NCBI GenBank assembly: GCA_965216785.1
Contig: OZ244197.1
Coordinates: forward strand, 1,024,001 to 1,088,000
Length of the DNA: 64,000 bases
DNA from: Thermodesulfobacteriota bacterium
GTDB taxonomy: Bacteria > Desulfobacterota_D > UBA1144 > Nemesobacterales > UBA2774
Direction: 5' to 3'
Under the pieces are notes generated by a model that was not told the origin of the DNA, made no database searches, and saw only the letters and a list, made by a program, of their open reading frames with translations. Below are positions 23,429 to 33,644 of this stretch, piece after piece; the stretch's first letter is position 1, and each line of letters starts with the position of its first letter. Both the position numbers and the translations under genes were made by a program.

Positions 23429-23621
23429 CGTAGTACCATCTGCAAAGGCGCGTATAAGTCCCGAATATTAAGAATGCTCGACCGCTTATTTCTTAATAAT
23501 GGCCCCCCATAAACATATTATAGTCTAAAAATCCAAAATTAGTAATAGGCAGTTTGGATTGGGCCGCTGTCCCTGTAAACAGCCCGCGTTTTTGGGGATT
23601 GCTCTTGAGCCGGGCATTGGG

Positions 23622-23864
23622 ATGTACCGTGTGCAGGAGAGGATACTTGAGTTTCTGGACGGCGAGACAGAGCCGGTGCATAGGAAGCTGATATTTGAGG
23701 ACGTGCAGGACGAGACCGGAGCTAAGCAGAGAACAGTTGAACGCGGGATTGAGGAGCTTATGGCCCTAGGACATGTTACAAAGGTGAAAAGGGGTTACTA
23801 CATGCTCTCAGAGTTCGCGCCGCAAGCGCCAACCCTAGGGTTTGGCGGGAATGGCGGGAAGTGA
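23622..23864 (+). CDS. Small winged-helix protein or fragment
   Basis: QERILEFL...RTVERGIEELMALGHVTKVKRGYYML wHTH pattern; start uncertain and RBS weak. Confidence 0.55.
   Translation: MYRVQERILEFLDGETEPVHRKLIFEDVQDETGAKQRTVERGIEELMALGHVTKVKRGYYMLSEFAPQAPTLGFGGNGGK
23811..23860. repeat. Left imperfect inverted repeat of the R-M cassette (internally palindromic)
   Basis: GAGTTCGCGCCGCAAGCGCCAA-CCCTAGGG-TTTGGCGGGAATGGCGGGAA; both blocks match the reverse complement of 25992..26086. Confidence 0.8.
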
Positions 23865-23875
23865 GGGGGTATCTA

Positions 23876-24718
23876 TCAAAGAATATCTTTTTCTACTTCA
23901 GGTGCTTCTATTCCTAAATATTCTCTATATATTCTCTCCCTGTAGACATTACCAAGCTCATTTACAGCTTCAATGAATGCTTGGTAAGTTCCAGTACCAC
24001 CTATTTTGTCCCAAAATTCATTTCCAATTAGGACAACTTTGTCCTCTTTCATATCAAACCATCGTGCAGGAAAACTCCAACTATAGTTTTCTCTAGTGCC
24101 ATATGGGTTGTAGGGCAAAGCATAAAAAGCATCATCTATTTGCGGATTTGTCATACAGTAGAGTTTCAATATTTTTTCTTTACTTACTTTTGTCTGATCA
24201 CTATTGGGTAGAGGTGCTTTTAATTCAAATGCATATTTTTTGTCGTTATTATGATCTTCAGTGTAAACATCACATACAACTGTAATAGGAATTTCTTCAC
24301 CTTTGCCTTTCAGAATATAATTTATTTCAGTATCCCAATCGGGCCGTTTCCGCTTTTGTCCTTTCCCAGGGTGTTCCAATGCATTAAGGATTTCAGTTAT
24401 ACGTCTAAGCCTACCCTGTTTAATTGTTCCACTTATAGTATGATTTAATTTTCCAAAGCCAAGACCATGTTGTGCCGCAACAACAGCTAATTTTTCCCAA
24501 ACTCCACCAAATGGAGTTACAAATCTACGTTCAAAATGAGACCCTTGAAATATTTCATAAGGCACTAGTGCCGCATATAATGGTTTCTCAGCTTTAAATT
24601 TGTCCAGTAGAAAAGGATCTTCAACTAATACTTTCTCTAGAACTCTATCCATCAACAAATTGATAACTGATTGTATAGATGTTTTGATCTCATCATGAAC
24701 GCTCACAACTTTCTCCAT
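23876..24718 (-). CDS. Type II restriction endonuclease, TdeIII/MjaII-like
   Basis: FERRFVTPFG, CDVY...FELKAPLPNSDQ (PD-(D/E)xK), ALPYNPYG and EFWDKIGG motifs; AT-rich. Confidence 0.85.
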   Translation of the reverse strand: MEKVVSVHDEIKTSIQSVINLLMDRVLEKVLVEDPFLLDKFKAEKPLYAALVPYEIFQGSHFERRFVTPFGGVWEKLAVVAAQHGLGFGKLNHTISGTIKQGRLRRITEILNALEHPGKGQKRKRPDWDTEINYILKGKGEEIPITVVCDVYTEDHNNDKKYAFELKAPLPNSDQTKVSKEKILKLYCMTNPQIDDAFYALPYNPYGTRENYSWSFPARWFDMKEDKVVLIGNEFWDKIGGTGTYQAFIEAVNELGNVYRERIYREYLGIEAPEVEKDIL

Positions 24719-25920
24719 ATGAATACTGATTCATAGAATTCATTAGACCTTCTGCCTGTTCTGCGATTAACATGTCGTTGTACAATGGCTTCGATTTCAA
24801 CATCTACAAGTTTAGCAATTTGCTCATAAAGGTTTTTTGTATCAGCAGCAATAATTATCATCCTGCCACCAGGTGCTAATGCATTTTTTGCATTAATAAA
24901 AACATTAGCAAGTGCCTCTATATATTTTTGTTGTGCCTTCTTACTTGCGCCATTTGCAGCAGGACCAATTTCATCCTGGCTATTGTCTTCAAGTCCTAAC
25001 AAATGATATGCATATTCATGCTGTAAGTGGTAATCAATCAAACCAACATATGGTGGACTTGTAATAACACCGTCTATTGGTGGGTATGCGGCTTGTCGAC
25101 TATCCTGATGATGAACCTCTGATAATGCATTGGTTCGTAAATGTGAAAATTCCTTTATACGCCTTATAGTATCAAGGCTATATCTAGAGATAAATTTAAG
25201 AGCATCTTCTGTCGGTGTACACGTTCTAGAATGCTTATAACACCAATATTCAGTATTTTGAGGAAACTTAGGAAAATCGAGGTCATAATGTGTTGTTAAT
25301 CGTGCGGATCTTGCGGAACGGGAAAGTATTATTTTTAGAAGATCTTTGTATTTATAATTTCCTGTCTCTAGAAAGAATTTATAAGCTAACAGCTCATTTA
25401 AGGCTTTTGGTTTGTACCACTCTTTTAAGTATTGATTAGCAACAAATGTAGGGTTCTCTAACTTTAGATTTTCTTTCCAGAGACTTAGCTGGTTCTTATC
25501 TCTTTGTGAAAACTCGTTTACCTTTTTTAGGATATCTAATACTTCTTCGTTTAAACTAGAAATATCATATTTCTCTATCTTAACTTTAGACAATAATACA
25601 TTGAAAGCCGAAACATCATAACCAATAGTATTTATTCCTAACTCATTTGCTTGTATTAGTGTAGTACCTGAACCACAAAATGGATCTAGTATTGTTTGCC
25701 CGGGTTCAAAATACTTCCGTAAAAATATTTCTACTAACTGTGGGATAAATTTGCCCAGATATGGGTGTAGACGGTGAACATGCTTAGTTCTTTCTCTTTC
25801 TGGAAGCTCTTTTTCGTTCCAATTTAAGTTTAAAGATTCAAGTTTTGTATCTTTACTAACCCTACTAGGTATAGTGGGTGTTAACTCTTTGTATTCAGTT
25901 GTTTCTTGTGTCAACTGCAA
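24703..25920 (-). CDS. DNA N4-cytosine/N6-adenine methyltransferase
   Basis: HPYLGKFIPQL, DPFCGSGTT and ITSPPY motifs; overlaps the endonuclease gene. Confidence 0.9.
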   Translation of the reverse strand: MQLTQETTEYKELTPTIPSRVSKDTKLESLNLNWNEKELPERERTKHVHRLHPYLGKFIPQLVEIFLRKYFEPGQTILDPFCGSGTTLIQANELGINTIGYDVSAFNVLLSKVKIEKYDISSLNEEVLDILKKVNEFSQRDKNQLSLWKENLKLENPTFVANQYLKEWYKPKALNELLAYKFFLETGNYKYKDLLKIILSRSARSARLTTHYDLDFPKFPQNTEYWCYKHSRTCTPTEDALKFISRYSLDTIRRIKEFSHLRTNALSEVHHQDSRQAAYPPIDGVITSPPYVGLIDYHLQHEYAYHLLGLEDNSQDEIGPAANGASKKAQQKYIEALANVFINAKNALAPGGRMIIIAADTKNLYEQIAKLVDVEIEAIVQRHVNRRTGRRSNEFYESVFIWRKL

Positions 25921-25991
25921 TTTATCTGACCTTTAAATATTTTGTGGTATAACATACTAGATTGACTAATATACTTCAAATGTAAATGATG

Positions 25992-26086
25992 TTCCCGCCA
26001 ATCGCGCCAAAGTATGGGGACAGAGGCGAGCGTCTTAATGCGATGCCGGGGTGTTAATTAGAAATTGGCGCTTGCGGCGCTAACTC
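25992..26086. repeat. Right imperfect inverted repeat of the R-M cassette
   Basis: TTCCCGCCAATCGCGCCAAA (18/20 match) and TTGGCGCTTGCGGCGCTAACTC (21/22 match) to the left-end blocks. Confidence 0.8.
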
Positions 26087-26099
26087 AAAAGACAGAAAC

Positions 26100-26145
26100 A
26101 AAAAAGGGAGCCGAAAGGGAGATAATCTCCCTAAGCTCCCTCTTT
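26100..26145 (-). terminator. IPTL-type terminator with an internal insertion
   Basis: Minus strand GGGAGC-[TTAGGGAGATTATCTCCCT]-TTCGGCTCCC-TTTTTT. Confidence 0.7.
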
Positions 26146-26180
26146 CATACTTTAGTTTTTCTATTTGTTACCGCGAGTGG

Positions 26181-26693
26181 TTACGCCGCGGCTTTTCTTC
26201 TGCGGACTGCTAACAGCCCTACAATGCCCAAAACTCCCGCCATGGCTATGAGTCCCCATTCAGACAGCGTAGGGATGGGGCGCGCACCTAAAAAATTGCT
26301 AAATGTACACGATATAGCACCACCACCGCCAAAGCAGCCGATGGTCACAGTAGCGCCGTCAATGGAAAAATTAACATCTCCCTCAACCCCGCACTCTATA
26401 CCCTGAAGCTCCCATCCGTCTAAAGGCTGTTCTGTGACTGCGAGTGTGTCGCCCGGGTCTATGCTAGTTGCGAAAGAGTCAGAATCGGGGTCACTTAAGG
26501 GAACTTCAAAAACAATCTCACCGGAAACGTTTTCAAATGTGAACACCGTGTTGTTTGCGGGAGTGGACGATTTAACAATCTCTATATCACAGTCCGTTGG
26601 TTGAGCCCTGGCATCGGGGCTGAAACCCAAACCAATTCCAACGGCAACATACGCGAAAATAAATACCGCAGCAATTCTGTAAGCGATCTTCAT
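26181..26693 (-). CDS. IPTL-CTERM protein with a single prealbumin-like/CnaB-type domain
   Basis: Signal peptide, CDIEIVK...VTE...CTFSN, then RPIPTLSEWG-TM-RRRK. Confidence 0.9.
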   Translation of the reverse strand: MKIAYRIAAVFIFAYVAVGIGLGFSPDARAQPTDCDIEIVKSSTPANNTVFTFENVSGEIVFEVPLSDPDSDSFATSIDPGDTLAVTEQPLDGWELQGIECGVEGDVNFSIDGATVTIGCFGGGGAISCTFSNFLGARPIPTLSEWGLIAMAGVLGIVGLLAVRRRKAAA

Positions 26694-26794
26694 GATGGAT
26701 CCTCCTTTATGCGTAAAAAATTCAGATTTTTTCTACGCTAACATATTTTACTGCCTTTTTGAAGATATATCGGGCAAATAGAGCAGAAGAGCCG

Positions 26795-26855
26795 CGCGGT
26801 TTAATCAGGGGCTTTCTCGAACGTTACGCGGAGCATGCCCCCTTCGAGGCTGGCG
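26795..26855. repeat. Direct repeat copy 1 (duplicate of the arsA 3' end)
   Basis: 26795-26845 is identical to 27990-28040 (51 bp); the match extends to 61 bp with 2 mismatches. Confidence 0.95.
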
Positions 26856-27072
26856 AAGCCCGATCGGGGGGGGAGCCTAAAATCAAGCTGGCCCGGGACG
26901 ACTTAAACACGCGAAGGGCGGTTAAAACAATAGACTCTTTTAATTATTATTTATACCTAGCGTTGTTTTTATATAATAGATTTTAATCTACTTAAAGGTG
27001 AGATTGCGCTAGGAATTTAATCTAATAGTGTTATAATTGGATAAATATTCACAATAAAAGGGAGGTTATGGG

Positions 27073-27999
27073 ATGAATCTATTAAGAATAACAATTACAG
27101 CTTTTTTCATTTTTATGCTCTCCTACGGCGCAGCGAGTGCACAACATGCACTCTTGATTTCCGTCGACGATTTCTGCATACAAGACGATGTGGGTAGTGA
27201 GCAGAGCAGACTTTTCAGAGTTGACCCGGAAACAGGGCAGATAGTAAGTATCGGACCAATCGGTTTCGACGCCGTAACGGGCATGGCGCAGCTCGGTGAC
27301 GGGAGACTCGTGGGCAGCGCAAGAGCGGACGCGGATGGGGACAGGATATCTATCCTTATCGAAATAAACCCGCTCACAGGCACGGGTACACTCATCGGGA
27401 CCATCGGTAACAATAACGAGGGCGGCTGCGGCAGAGTGCCTGACCTTACCTACGACGCTGCTACGGATACGCTCTACGGAATAGGCTTCAGGTGTATTCC
27501 GGGTGACAGCCACGGCGGCATAACAGAGCTGCTTACTATAAATCAAAATACCGGAGAGGGCACTACAGTCGGGCAGACCGGGTTTTTCGGGGGCGGGAAC
27601 GGACTGGCCATCAGTCCCGGCGGTACGCTGTTTTCTTCTGAGAACGAAGAGTTTTTAACCCTTGACCCGGATACAGGCCAGGGAACGCTGGTTGCAAACC
27701 ATCCCCCACCGGGTGATTTCGTTATGTCTGCAATGGACTTCCAGCCTGAAACAGGTGATCTCTTTGGGGTTGCATTCAGATTTGGCGAAGGGTTCCCGAC
27801 CGATCTCGTAACCATAAATACTGCAACAGCCGTGTTAACCACAATACTCGAGTTGCCGGTCTGTTCAGATGCGATGGTGTTTATTGAAATTCCACCGAGA
27901 CCCATCCCTACGCTTTCCGAGTGGGGACTGATCGCTACAGCCGGAGTGCTGGGCATTATCGGCTTCTTTGCGCTCAGGAGAAGAAGGGCCGCGGTTTAA
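27073..27999 (+). CDS. IPTL-CTERM protein with beta-propeller-like repeats
   Basis: Signal peptide, repeated L..IDP.TG.GT..G motif and RPIPTLSEWG-TM-RRRR; GGGAGG RBS. Confidence 0.9.
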   Translation: MNLLRITITAFFIFMLSYGAASAQHALLISVDDFCIQDDVGSEQSRLFRVDPETGQIVSIGPIGFDAVTGMAQLGDGRLVGSARADADGDRISILIEINPLTGTGTLIGTIGNNNEGGCGRVPDLTYDAATDTLYGIGFRCIPGDSHGGITELLTINQNTGEGTTVGQTGFFGGGNGLAISPGGTLFSSENEEFLTLDPDTGQGTLVANHPPPGDFVMSAMDFQPETGDLFGVAFRFGEGFPTDLVTINTATAVLTTILELPVCSDAMVFIEIPPRPIPTLSEWGLIATAGVLGIIGFFALRRRRAAV

Positions 28000-28050
28000 T
28001 CAGGGGCTTTCTCGAACGTTACGCGGAGCATGCCCCCTTCTAGGTTGGCG
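27990..28050. repeat. Direct repeat copy 2
   Basis: Contains the overlapping stop codons of the IPTL gene (+) and arsA (-) in one TTAA. Confidence 0.95.
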
Positions 28051-30906: not shown

Positions 30907-32574
30907 TCAGTTAATAACAGCGCCGTCCGGTATATTAGCAAACGAGCGTATCCTTACGCCATCGCCTATGGTTACATCCATGCCGATTCGCACAAAAGCG
31001 CCGATCCGTACGCTGTTGCCGATCACGGTGTTTGCTCCAATCCTCGTGAATGCTCTCACTCTGGTTCCGTCTCCGATACTGACGTTATCACCGATCCTGA
31101 CCGCGAACCCTATTCGTGAATTCATTCCCACTGTGACACCTGAGCCAAGGTTTGAAAATGCCCGGACCCTTGCGCCGTCGCCTATTTCAGAGCCTTCTCC
31201 GACCTGCACGAATATGCCAATAAGCGCGTTGTCACCGATTGTAGAGTGATCGCCCAATACGGCGCCGCTGCGTATTGTTGCACCCTCGCCAATTAAAACT
31301 CCTTCACCGATAGTTACGTTATTTCCGATGTTGGCAGTCGGAGAAACGCAGGCGTCGCCAAACCCGTCCATATTGGTGTCTTCCTGGCCGGGGTTGGCAA
31401 GGAACGGACAGTTGTCTACGTCGCCGCAAACGCCGTCGCCATCTATGTCGTTATCCGGGTCGGCAGGGCACGCGTCGCAAGCGTCCCCAAGCCCGTCACC
31501 GTCCTCATCTTCCTGCCCCGGGTTTGGATCGGCAGGGCAGTTGTCCGCGCTGTCCGGAACGCCGTCGCCGTCACTATCAACGGCTGTTTCCGTTCTCGCG
31601 GGCAGACTGTCGTTTATCCCCAGCCTTACGAAACAGTAATCTTCCGAGCCGCATGATATAAAAACCTCTTCGTCATCGAAAAGACCTACCTCGTAATTCG
31701 AAACCGCACCAAACGCGAAGTACGGAGGGCCGTAATCATCCCGGATGTTCATCACCACTACATCCGATGCCGTCTCAGTGCCTACCGTGCTGTATAAACC
31801 GTAAACCTCGTCGGGAAGAAAATCGTCCAGGCTCGAGCCCGGAGCGCCGGTGAGTATCCCGCTGCAGCCAGGAGCCGTGCAGATGGCTTGTCTTGCGTAC
31901 ATATTCGCACCGTACGTAAATCCGAGGGAATCGGAAATATGTAGATTCCCTGAAAGGAAGTCGTGATCTATAACGCTGCGCGGGCTGGGACAATCATTGA
32001 CCGGCGTTATGACCAATATTCCTTCTTTGTCATCTAAGTCGGCCTCCGGTATATCGTTGCCATCGTTAGAGACAATGCTGCTCAAGTCGTACACGTGCGT
32101 GTCATTGGCTGTATATCTGTCGCAGAAGTCCCGTATCTCTACGCAGTCTTCGTTAAGAATCTGGATGTGCACGTTTAACACTCCTCCGGGGGTTAGCATC
32201 CCTGAGTTATCGGAAGAGTTCGTGACCTGGATCTTAGTGTTTCTACCCTCTGTGCGGGTCCACCATGTTATTAGCTGTGTCCCTATTTCGTTTGAGGGCG
32301 AAGAGGTGGCTATTGAGGATGTGCCTCCTCTTGTATGCATCCAGTCCAGACCTCCCGTGAAGCTTGTGGGTGTGCGCTCGAAAACGCCTATCATCGCAGC
32401 CGAGAAATTAGGGGTAGTCGGAGTGATGTCGAGATTTAACATCCCATCTGTATAGGGTACGCCCGAGCAGAAGAGGTTATTGTCACCTACCTGAGCATTC
32501 GCGCGTATAGTTGTTACGCATATGAACACCAGTAGTAAAACCGTCATGAAAAAACGTCCGGATAAAATGTTCAT
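30907..32574 (-). CDS. Secreted protein: unknown N-terminal domain + thrombospondin type 3 repeats + C-terminal hexapeptide (left-handed beta-helix) repeat
   Basis: DSDGDGVPDSADNCP..PNPGQED repeats and (I/V)G(D/E/N)xx hexapeptides; GGAGG RBS supports a start at 32574. Confidence 0.85.
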   Translation of the reverse strand: MNILSGRFFMTVLLLVFICVTTIRANAQVGDNNLFCSGVPYTDGMLNLDITPTTPNFSAAMIGVFERTPTSFTGGLDWMHTRGGTSSIATSSPSNEIGTQLITWWTRTEGRNTKIQVTNSSDNSGMLTPGGVLNVHIQILNEDCVEIRDFCDRYTANDTHVYDLSSIVSNDGNDIPEADLDDKEGILVITPVNDCPSPRSVIDHDFLSGNLHISDSLGFTYGANMYARQAICTAPGCSGILTGAPGSSLDDFLPDEVYGLYSTVGTETASDVVVMNIRDDYGPPYFAFGAVSNYEVGLFDDEEVFISCGSEDYCFVRLGINDSLPARTETAVDSDGDGVPDSADNCPADPNPGQEDEDGDGLGDACDACPADPDNDIDGDGVCGDVDNCPFLANPGQEDTNMDGFGDACVSPTANIGNNVTIGEGVLIGEGATIRSGAVLGDHSTIGDNALIGIFVQVGEGSEIGDGARVRAFSNLGSGVTVGMNSRIGFAVRIGDNVSIGDGTRVRAFTRIGANTVIGNSVRIGAFVRIGMDVTIGDGVRIRSFANIPDGAVIN

Positions 32575-32651
32575 TGCCGGTCCTCCCTCTTTAAATACTT
32601 TCTTCAAACCTCTTGTCGTCTCTGATGCTTTCTTTTTTATTTGTCCTTTTC

Positions 32652-33644
32652 TCATGGCGTAGTACCTCCTTCCCACCAGGAGTCAAACGAGCTTGAGCTT
32701 GCGCCGTTCGTAAGCCCGATAAACCCCGTGAAATGGGTATTAAACGCGCAGGTACCGTCCGCCTCGCCGACGATTGGGTCGCTGCAGATAAAGTCCTCAA
32801 ACGGCATGTATAGATGGCCAGAGTCATTGGTGGCGCTGATCGTACTTGAGAGGCAAGCTTCGTTTGGGTCTCCCTTGGTGTTAGGCAGTGAGAGGTCTAT
32901 GGCTATGTTCGCGCTGCCGTCGCTGCAGTTAAATTCCCTGGGAGAGCATGAAGACGGGGTCTCGTTTTCATCATAGATTATTATCTGATCCGGGGTGGTC
33001 GCTCCCCCGAAGACTGAACGAACGCCGGGGCTTGCGTAGACGGTGTCGTGGGTAATCTCCGCATAGGTGAATCCTATGAGCTCTGAGAAACTGCTGCCGT
33101 TAGCGCTGCTGAAATTGATAATGCCTGCCGCGCTCGAGTCGGTCGATGTCGACTCGGGAGCCGCGGCGTTTGCCCTGTACTCATAGCCAGCGTCGTCGAT
33201 AATCCGCATCGTCCCGGTAAGCGAGTTCGAGGGGCCCGACGACAGCGAAATCACCACAAACCCGTAGAGGTCAGGATCTAAAGTAATTCCGAAAGCAGCA
33301 TCGTTCAGGACGATATTAGACATATCGTACGTGTGAACGTCTACAGCCGTGTAGGTGTCGAAAAAATCAATTTCTTCGCAGCTGACTATTGTAGAATTAA
33401 CCGTAAATATCTGAACGTGGACGGTTAACGGGGTGAACGTCAGATTTGCGAGCTGGATATAGCTCTTTCTCGCCCTTGTGTCGAAATAATACACCAGTCT
33501 GTCAGCCCCCCCGTCGGTCAGCTGTATCGGACCCGGGGACCCCGCACCGGCCGCTGGCACCAGTGTGCAAAAAAGAATTAAAACGGGAAAGAAATACTTA
33601 CATAGCAAACGCTTAGAATATACTAAGTGTGTATGCTCCATCAT
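32652..33644 (-). CDS. Secreted hypothetical protein, paralogous to the N-domain of the downstream gene
   Basis: IQLAN...VHVQIF...CEEIDFFDTYT..DVHTYDMSNIV aligns with IQVTN...VHIQIL...C.EIRDFCDRYT..DTHVYDLSSIV; GGAGG RBS. Confidence 0.8.
   Translation of the reverse strand: MMEHTHLVYSKRLLCKYFFPVLILFCTLVPAAGAGSPGPIQLTDGGADRLVYYFDTRARKSYIQLANLTFTPLTVHVQIFTVNSTIVSCEEIDFFDTYTAVDVHTYDMSNIVLNDAAFGITLDPDLYGFVVISLSSGPSNSLTGTMRIIDDAGYEYRANAAAPESTSTDSSAAGIINFSSANGSSFSELIGFTYAEITHDTVYASPGVRSVFGGATTPDQIIIYDENETPSSCSPREFNCSDGSANIAIDLSLPNTKGDPNEACLSSTISATNDSGHLYMPFEDFICSDPIVGEADGTCAFNTHFTGFIGLTNGASSSSFDSWWEGGTTP

Follow-up and report, generated by a model that had tools for sequence, protein, structure and literature searches.

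An ATPase gene of the Get3/ArsA family and an IPTL-CTERM gene lie tail to tail in the 64,000-nt stretch of DNA analysed here (the window), with the TTAA at 27996-27999 providing the stop codon of both, arsA on the minus strand and the convergent IPTL gene on the plus strand (Table 1). The end of arsA is present twice: two copies of a 51-nt sequence, identical at every position and spaced 1195 nt apart, enclose a unique part of 1144 nt. Of these 51 nt, 45 are the final 14 arsA codons and the stop, and the remaining 6 lie past it. Shuffling the window 20 times gave longest exact direct repeats of 13-15 nt, against 51 nt in the real one, and blastn against the whole genome (3,118,197 nt) returned this single pair and no third copy. 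An earlier note on this DNA had described the exact duplication, its derivation from the arsA 3′ end and the shared stop, all of which stand. Its description of the unit as an upstream region and one IPTL gene with no integrase also stands, except that it missed the truncated unit of an intergenic repeat family at the start. Three other ORFs of at least 70 aa lie fully inside the unit, all nested in the IPTL gene, and a 75-aa TTG ORF overlaps the left repeat copy. We keep 'arsA' as a label: the gene passes the broader GET3/ArsA/TRC40 model (276 versus 135) but reaches only 108.9 bits with the arsenical-pump model TIGR04291, whose cut-off is 650, so the target is a Get3/ArsA-fold ATPase and not, as the note had it, arsA proper.

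Table 1. Features around the duplicated arsA end, in positions of the window
Feature	Position	Strand	Remarks
Second IPTL-CTERM gene, SpaA_4 domain, 170 aa	26181..26693	-	outside the unit
IPTL-tail-like stretch, 14 nt	26781..26794		resembles final IPTL codons, one 2-nt gap; non-coding
Left copy of the exact 51-bp repeat	26795..26845		orphan last 14 arsA codons, stop, 6 nt
Extension of the left copy, 10 nt	26846..26855		8/10 identical to arsA
5′-truncated unit of the intergenic repeat family	26853..26888	+	left inner joint of the insert
AT-rich upstream region	26922..27072	+	two sigma-70-like matches, 26922-26950 and 26950-26977; purine-rich ribosome-binding-like stretch
IPTL-CTERM gene, 308 aa (cargo)	27073..27999	+	Pfam PF18203 36.5 bits (cut-off 20.8), TIGR04174 26.4 (20.5)
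Right copy of the 51-bp repeat	27990..28040		contains both stop codons
Get3/ArsA-family ATPase, HSP20-like C-terminal domain, 391 aa	27996..29171	-	intact target gene

The cargo protein passes the IPTL-CTERM cut-offs and has the build of other IPTL-CTERM sorted proteins (PF18203, TIGR04174), with an export-like helix at the N-terminus and an IPTL motif, a membrane helix and a basic tail at the C-terminus; it differs from them in its predicted beta-propeller body and a partial DUF4394 match. A model based on 101 aligned sequences (from the best 120 of 154 homologues) places a 20-strand body between two helices at a pLDDT of 92.4, and the structural matches listed for it are all beta-propellers, with TM of about 0.4-0.5; judged by the strand count, the body may have five blades. 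The protein is predicted to be an exported beta-propeller that is held or processed via its C-terminal sorting tail. As an exosortase-family candidate, the genome offers a single partial match to PF09721 (35.9 bits, covering positions 102-250 of 254), and an IPTL tail is also found on the Methylomirabilis S-layer protein (PMC8671808). Upstream of the gene, sigma-70-like matches, defined by consensus only, number 6 versus 3.2 expected. By their source names, the homologues belong to Thermodesulfobacteriota or Candidatus Dadabacteria. Within 1.5 kb on each side of the closest orthologues, at 72, 68 and 67% identity in three genomes (G018, G003 and G019), there is neither an arsA gene nor any long flanking repeat other than paralogous IPTL tails. 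In the genome under study, PF18203 has 56 matches and a pattern search recovers 54 tails, among which that of the cargo gene is the only one to overlap a neighbouring gene. A terminator type defined by a strict pattern follows 30 of the 54 IPTL genes and is absent after the cargo gene, an absence of little weight; with only 30/54, the idea that nearly all IPTL genes share one terminator type was dropped.

Contigs from 7 of the 24 listed sequencing runs were compared with the locus, and five studies contribute runs that contain the unit. No RNA run is listed as carrying the sequence, which gives no information on expression. Because 51-nt repeats collapse in short-word assemblers and none of the listed contigs covers the whole unit, an assembly artefact had to be considered. 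However, in run X5, from a second study, contigs end at 26824 and 28019 and start at 26816 and 28011, as expected if both repeat copies exist. Its unit contig departs from the window at a single base and in a single homopolymer letter, and its depth is 10, against 9.3 and 7.6 in the flanks. In X11, from a third study, a 350-nt contig spans the right joint with zero differences; X10 crosses out of the left flank into copy 1, of which it covers 46 nt; and in X1, possibly the source run, the 51-mer stands as a separate contig. Parts of the unit are also contained in runs X8, X9 and X10, from two further studies. As contigs of other studies break at the 51-nt repeat or bridge it, misassembly can be ruled out for practical purposes, and the repeat pair is genuine. 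No empty-site or circle joint is listed in the 7 runs, whose contigs break at the repeat and lose rare variants, so that minority alleles cannot show in them; the unit seems to be stable in the species. Over 26978-27679, run X7 lacks coverage between flanks at 2-5x, but it offers no contig joining them and was not counted as an empty site. The X1 contig depths (402, 714, 185, 638, 474) are unbalanced and were left out of the evidence. In that run, a 290-nt contig covering 26816-27105, a stretch with an 8-G run, has a depth of 185 versus 400-640 around it and breaks at the IPTL gene start, a break that X5 does not have.

The relatives of arsA show what ordinarily follows this gene. From 44 loci, 6 without a parsable C-terminus were set aside, leaving 38, one of which has no stop in its contig; the remaining 37 offer 68 to 5945 nt of downstream DNA, and some belong to the same species. 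Neither a second copy of the last 45 nt nor a convergent IPTL gene occurs at any of the 37 arsA ends. Of the 37, 32 have a PAP2 gene and/or a gene that we take, from its motif, to be glycosyltransferase-like. In G002, a genome of the same genus, arsA and the PAP2 gene are 260 nt apart and the whole 4.4-kb interval 23532-27995 is missing; its arsA end, at 75% over the last 96 nt, is too diverged to pass for an empty site, and the flank is missing together with the insert. The absence of this interval from G002 and the gene content behind 32 of the 37 arsA ends favour an insertion. A DNA search across 33 genomes of the family turned up the unit nowhere else, and the arsA end of this species is absent among those of 19 metagenome loci that could be parsed, a set from which the records of the source genome were possibly omitted.

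The gap between arsA and PAP2 is a site of turnover in several lineages. Loci L068 and L079 carry an insertion ~36 nt past the arsA stop that is absent from L070 and opens with a word resembling, by eye, the repeat at genome position 1289187. One X8 contig (touching 23812 and 27991; depth 3.6) has ~89% identity to the arsA end and continues into sequence like that of an inverted-repeat element, which suggests that a related species may have such an element directly behind arsA. On the other side of the gene, at 30907-33644, two exported-looking genes replace other content between the arsA upstream region and the next conserved gene, and one of them ends in thrombospondin type 3 repeats and a hexapeptide beta-helix.

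The second IPTL gene starts 107 nt past the stop in the left repeat copy and is likely to have been the earlier neighbour of arsA. Loci L073 and L074 have a co-directional IPTL gene, 40-42% identical to it, 110 nt past the arsA stop, and L066 has a truncated form behind arsA; the similar spacing (107 versus 110 nt) fits an earlier order of arsA followed by the second IPTL gene. Because 44-46% identical paralogues lie elsewhere in the source genome, the gene in L073 and L074 may nevertheless be an independent arrival. The region of the tail and terminator of the second IPTL gene (26130-26279) shares 88% identity with the corresponding region of a distant paralogue (genome contig C1, 1940811-1940959), which hints at tail exchange among IPTL genes.

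Farther out, a restriction-modification (RM) pair at 23876-25920 lies outside the repeats, 0.9-2.9 kb from the unit, and is the visibly variable part of the region, as X5 and X7 skip 23560-26133. It consists of a TdeIII-like restriction enzyme and a methylase (GC 35%) behind a short ORF, framed by inverted repeats of ~50 bp (23811-23860 and 25992-26086), and thereby resembles the RM units with inverted repeats described in PMC2853133. Within the right inverted repeat, at 26014-26064, a unit of the intergenic repeat family replaces 4 nt of the version at genome position 2392900, with no long duplication. A second frame of this kind (C1 2390999-2391275 and 2392897-2392951) encloses two unrelated genes.

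The match between the two arsA ends does not stop at the perfect core: an ungapped alignment covers 61 nt at 97%, and one with a single 2-nt gap covers 75 nt at 92% (26781-26855 versus 27978-28050). At the inner edge, the 8/10 agreement of the extension with arsA is equalled by 2 of 5733 and 1 of 6090 random flanks. In the frame of arsA, the extension spells A-S-L where the gene has A-N-L (ASLEGG versus ANLEGG). Among the 38 arsA relatives, which are not independent of one another, the leucine codon at this edge, CTC, occurs in 21 and the gene's own CTA in none, and serine (AGC) occupies the altered position in 3; the left copy therefore resembles a real arsA allele. The opening 7 nt of the extension agree also with a conserved repeat-family word and may be repeat-derived rather than allelic, and its last 3-4 nt also open the truncated repeat unit, which points to a microhomology joint. 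The family has 9 motif copies in the genome versus 0 in the shuffled genome. At the outer edge, the likeness to an IPTL tail that the earlier note had seen left of copy 1 is above chance, by a modest margin, being equalled by 49 of 6145 and 53 of 6210 random flanks.

Displaced gene ends occur elsewhere in this genome, the only one scanned in this way. An orphan copy of the last 80 nt lies within 10 kb downstream of 6 of the 2542 ORFs of at least 120 aa and upstream of 3. Internal segments taken at 40, 60 and 80% of the length gave 0 downstream copies, and those at 20% gave 5 rows from 3 genes. One of the six, at genome position 1956225, looks like a match to a repeat family, judging by nearby blast hits, and was dropped, leaving five including arsA. 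The other four are a gene that its motif leads us to call RNase HII-like, a small integrase, a 149-aa gene and a 575-aa gene. Behind each of them lie a single cargo gene and an end copy of 82-90% identity, and this recurrence of orphan ends around single cargo genes also favours insertion at arsA. Three of these four sites were checked in five relatives, among which G002 carries different cargo at two of the three and lacks cargo at the third, the 149-aa gene, whose case is an internally deleted remnant. The repeats have no sequence in common, and this argues against a single site-specific enzyme.

Other islets were seen along the same genome. Behind a tRNA-Thr gene at C1 2672267-2682900 come an integrase island and a tandem 2283-bp unit; both carry an IPTL gene, and both have a separate copy of the tRNA end (49 and 75 bp). 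A tRNA-Ala islet (C1 914783-915866; 25-bp repeat, one gene) and a tRNA-Glu islet (C1 948732-952000; 33-bp repeat, three genes) have no PF00589 match, and the 5′ part of the tRNA-Leu at 1330257 is duplicated 8.2 kb upstream. At C1 1605130-1612653, a 96-bp imperfect intergenic repeat (33 exact) surrounds 7.5 kb of DNA that contains three IPTL genes but has no integrase match. Three tyrosine recombinases of ~210 aa stand among IPTL and other cargo genes (C1 864005-871561, 1151855-1164038 and 1289416-1292063), two of them near long serine-recombinase ORFs and one with its own 3′ end duplicated.

The hallmarks of known mobile elements were searched for. No integron integrase exceeded the cut-off in the genome, which is 92% complete by markers: the best TIGR02249 score is 90.2 bits versus 265, in a test that none of 14 controls passed and that thus has no positive control. 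Within ~40 nt of either repeat copy there are no attC core heptamers; no hairpin is predicted (folding z-scores of -0.09 to 1.29), and no terminal inverted pair marks the unit ends among the 25 longest of the 37 listed. Transposases of the Y1 (HUH; PF01797) and IS110 (PF02371) types, each found in 6 of the 14 controls, have 0 matches in the genome. Long target duplications of variable length are a trait of IS1634-type transposases. A dif-like motif has zero matches genome-wide, which makes that test powerless. The genome contains 15 tyrosine (PF00589) and 2 serine (PF00239) recombinase matches, none within the window, and the 1144-nt unique part holds no integrase or remnant of one.

The earlier note had likened the unit to a minimal gene cassette for adding or removing surface proteins, and its geometry was described correctly: if the repeats recombined with each other, arsA would stay whole and a whole IPTL gene would end up on a circle. 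Clean excision is, however, geometrically possible under all readings and does not alone make a cassette. An active minimal cassette would excise as a circle, re-enter empty arsA ends and cycle surface proteins in the population, and the perfect repeats, the unit's own promoter-like region and the several single-cargo scars in the genome could be read in that way, in addition to the geometry. Nevertheless, we hold it to be highly improbable: an integron integrase (90 versus 265 bits), an attC core and a hairpin (z of -0.09) are all lacking, the unit is single-copy, the five studies list no alternative cargo, its depth in X5 equals that of the flanks (10 versus 9.3 and 7.6), and the layout is found in only 1 of 54 IPTL genes. 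With 0 of 37 arsA ends duplicated and three orthologues away from arsA, a surface-protein cassette gains no support from the relatives either.

Of the two modes of entry named in the earlier note, a long target duplication fits the locus, while att-like integration is unsupported because no integrase lies in the unit and no tRNA serves as its target. Another reading sees in the unit the remnant of an integrase-made island at the arsA 3′ end, the integrase having been deleted at the repeat unit or acting in trans. The target gene end is restored and the displaced end is distal, as in attachment-site islands, and the genome has the 15 tyrosine and 2 serine recombinase matches as well as tRNA islands that carry IPTL cargo. 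Against these points stand the 1144 nt devoid of an integrase or its remnant, the 37 related arsA ends with no duplication, and the similar scars at unrelated genes with unrelated sequences, and we consider such a relic improbable.

The history that we infer, at every one of its steps, and that we judge somewhat better than evenly probable, is that the 1195-bp unit is a one-off, integrase-free insertion scar left by recombination with a sister allele. The donor would have been DNA of a close relative in which the IPTL gene already lay tail-to-tail with arsA, and the recipient chromosome would have had arsA followed by the second IPTL gene. One joint would be homologous, in or beside the arsA end; the other would have joined, through short homology, a point in arsA ~55-61 nt from the outer edge of the repeat to the repeat unit upstream of the IPTL gene. 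The IPTL gene would thus have arrived with its own arsA end, leaving that end twice, and the left 51-bp copy would be the displaced old one. The donor piece may have been a circle, entering by a single crossover, or a linear molecule anchored by homology with one illegitimate joint. Host recombination between the 51-bp repeats could then give occasional loss or amplification, which implies no dedicated machinery.

Recombination with a sister allele would explain four features at once: a coding core free of mismatches, an edge that resembles an arsA allele, a non-coding tail edge that has decayed, and the distance to the second IPTL gene. It is favoured because both edges extend beyond chance, with an indel in the non-coding, tail-like edge and none in the coding part, and because the left joint cuts a unit of the repeat family; the presence of a ComEC-family gene, with a putative role in DNA uptake, was counted in its favour. 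Several observations count against it. Neither parent allele was found, as no arsA with a convergent IPTL gene only and no conspecific empty site came to light; the bias towards 3′ ends is modest (6 downstream versus 3 upstream); the internally deleted sister case suits duplication followed by decay equally well; and arsA shows no obvious replaced tract, either by GC3 or by identity to G002.

A one-step templated insertion during repair or replication is an alternative that we regard as unlikely. Synthesis would jump from the arsA end to a donor repeat unit via the 8 matching bases of 10, copy the IPTL gene and return ~65 nt behind its exit via the tail-like match, so that 51 nt would be copied twice. 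This would account for short imperfect homology at both edges with a perfect core between them and for an IPTL stop inside host-like sequence, and the nearby RM pair could be relevant, given that PMC2853133 suggests double-strand breaks as a cause. However, both differences in the 10-nt edge are of kinds seen in real arsA alleles, the genome retains no donor copy, and the RM pair is missing from strains that still hold the unit (X5). Alternatively, the IPTL gene and the arsA end may have been duplicated in tandem in place, with most of the first copy then deleted to leave a 14-nt tail and ~61 nt of arsA. The tail-like left edge would then be true homology, and the case of the 149-aa gene provides an example of an internally deleted copy. 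We find this scenario distinctly improbable, as it requires two events with well-placed ends, the mismatches are grouped at the two edges of a flawless 51-nt core, and a distance of 107 nt to the second IPTL gene agrees with an arrangement that lacks the unit.

Very doubtful, in our estimation, is a standing recombinase-free cycle that turns over the ~55 IPTL genes and other single cargo. In it, host recombination would release units behind duplicated gene ends as circles, which would travel from cell to cell and rejoin the same gene end through a single crossover, the intergenic repeats supplying the founding joints. If true, such a cycle would let an uncultured lineage exchange its surface proteins with no need of an integrase. 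Recombination with a sister allele makes the locus an ordinary but legible example of insertion with long target duplication, whose cargo is a surface-protein gene. No title on this locus was found in a literature search whose scope left out most subscription papers.

Among known systems, integron gene cassettes share with the unit a single gene, no mobility gene and the potential to circularize; the unit differs in having no IntI, no attC core or hairpin, a promoter-like region of its own and no array. Attachment-site genomic islands and islets lie at the 3′ ends of tRNA or protein genes. As at this locus, they restore the target gene end and displace the old end to the far side, but here there is no integrase, no tRNA target and no sister element at the arsA of relatives. 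The tRNA cases of attachment-site insertion appear in PMC2853133. Closer to the proposed joints are homology-facilitated illegitimate recombination and single crossovers with circles, which, in PMC3240628, give duplications of 109-950 bp in laboratory E. coli conjugation. These events likewise combine one homologous and one short-homology joint and duplicate part of the target locus, whereas the duplication here measures 51-75 bp and its origin is read from sequence alone. Repeat-mediated deletions and deletion-coupled insertions, as treated in PMC3119063, are related yet distinct.

The unit is likely to be one more insertion with long target duplication, and not a new gene-cassette system. 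Furuta, Abe and Kobayashi (2010; PMC2853133), who cite Nobusato et al. (2000) as reference 37, describe 46-bp duplications that overlap gene 3′ ends, lack mobility genes and occur mostly in competent species, and leave the mechanism of such insertions open. Compared with the cases in that paper, the cargo here is a surface-protein gene and not restriction-modification, the RM pair lying outside the repeats; the repeat is mostly coding, with cargo and target sharing the stop-codon tetramer; and no conspecific empty allele was found, which contigs cannot resolve. The likenesses are nonetheless extensive. Such insertions, as defined there, have an insert of <20 kb and a duplication of >30 bp that is unique in the genome, carry no integrase or transposase and, in the 46-bp Haemophilus cases, overlap a gene 3′ end with their repeat; here, an exact 51-bp repeat, present in two copies in 3.12 Mb, encloses 1144 nt with neither enzyme. 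With its perfect repeat pair, allele-like edges, repeat-unit joint and deep public runs, the arsA locus has a modest value as a test case for the mechanism of insertion with long target duplication.
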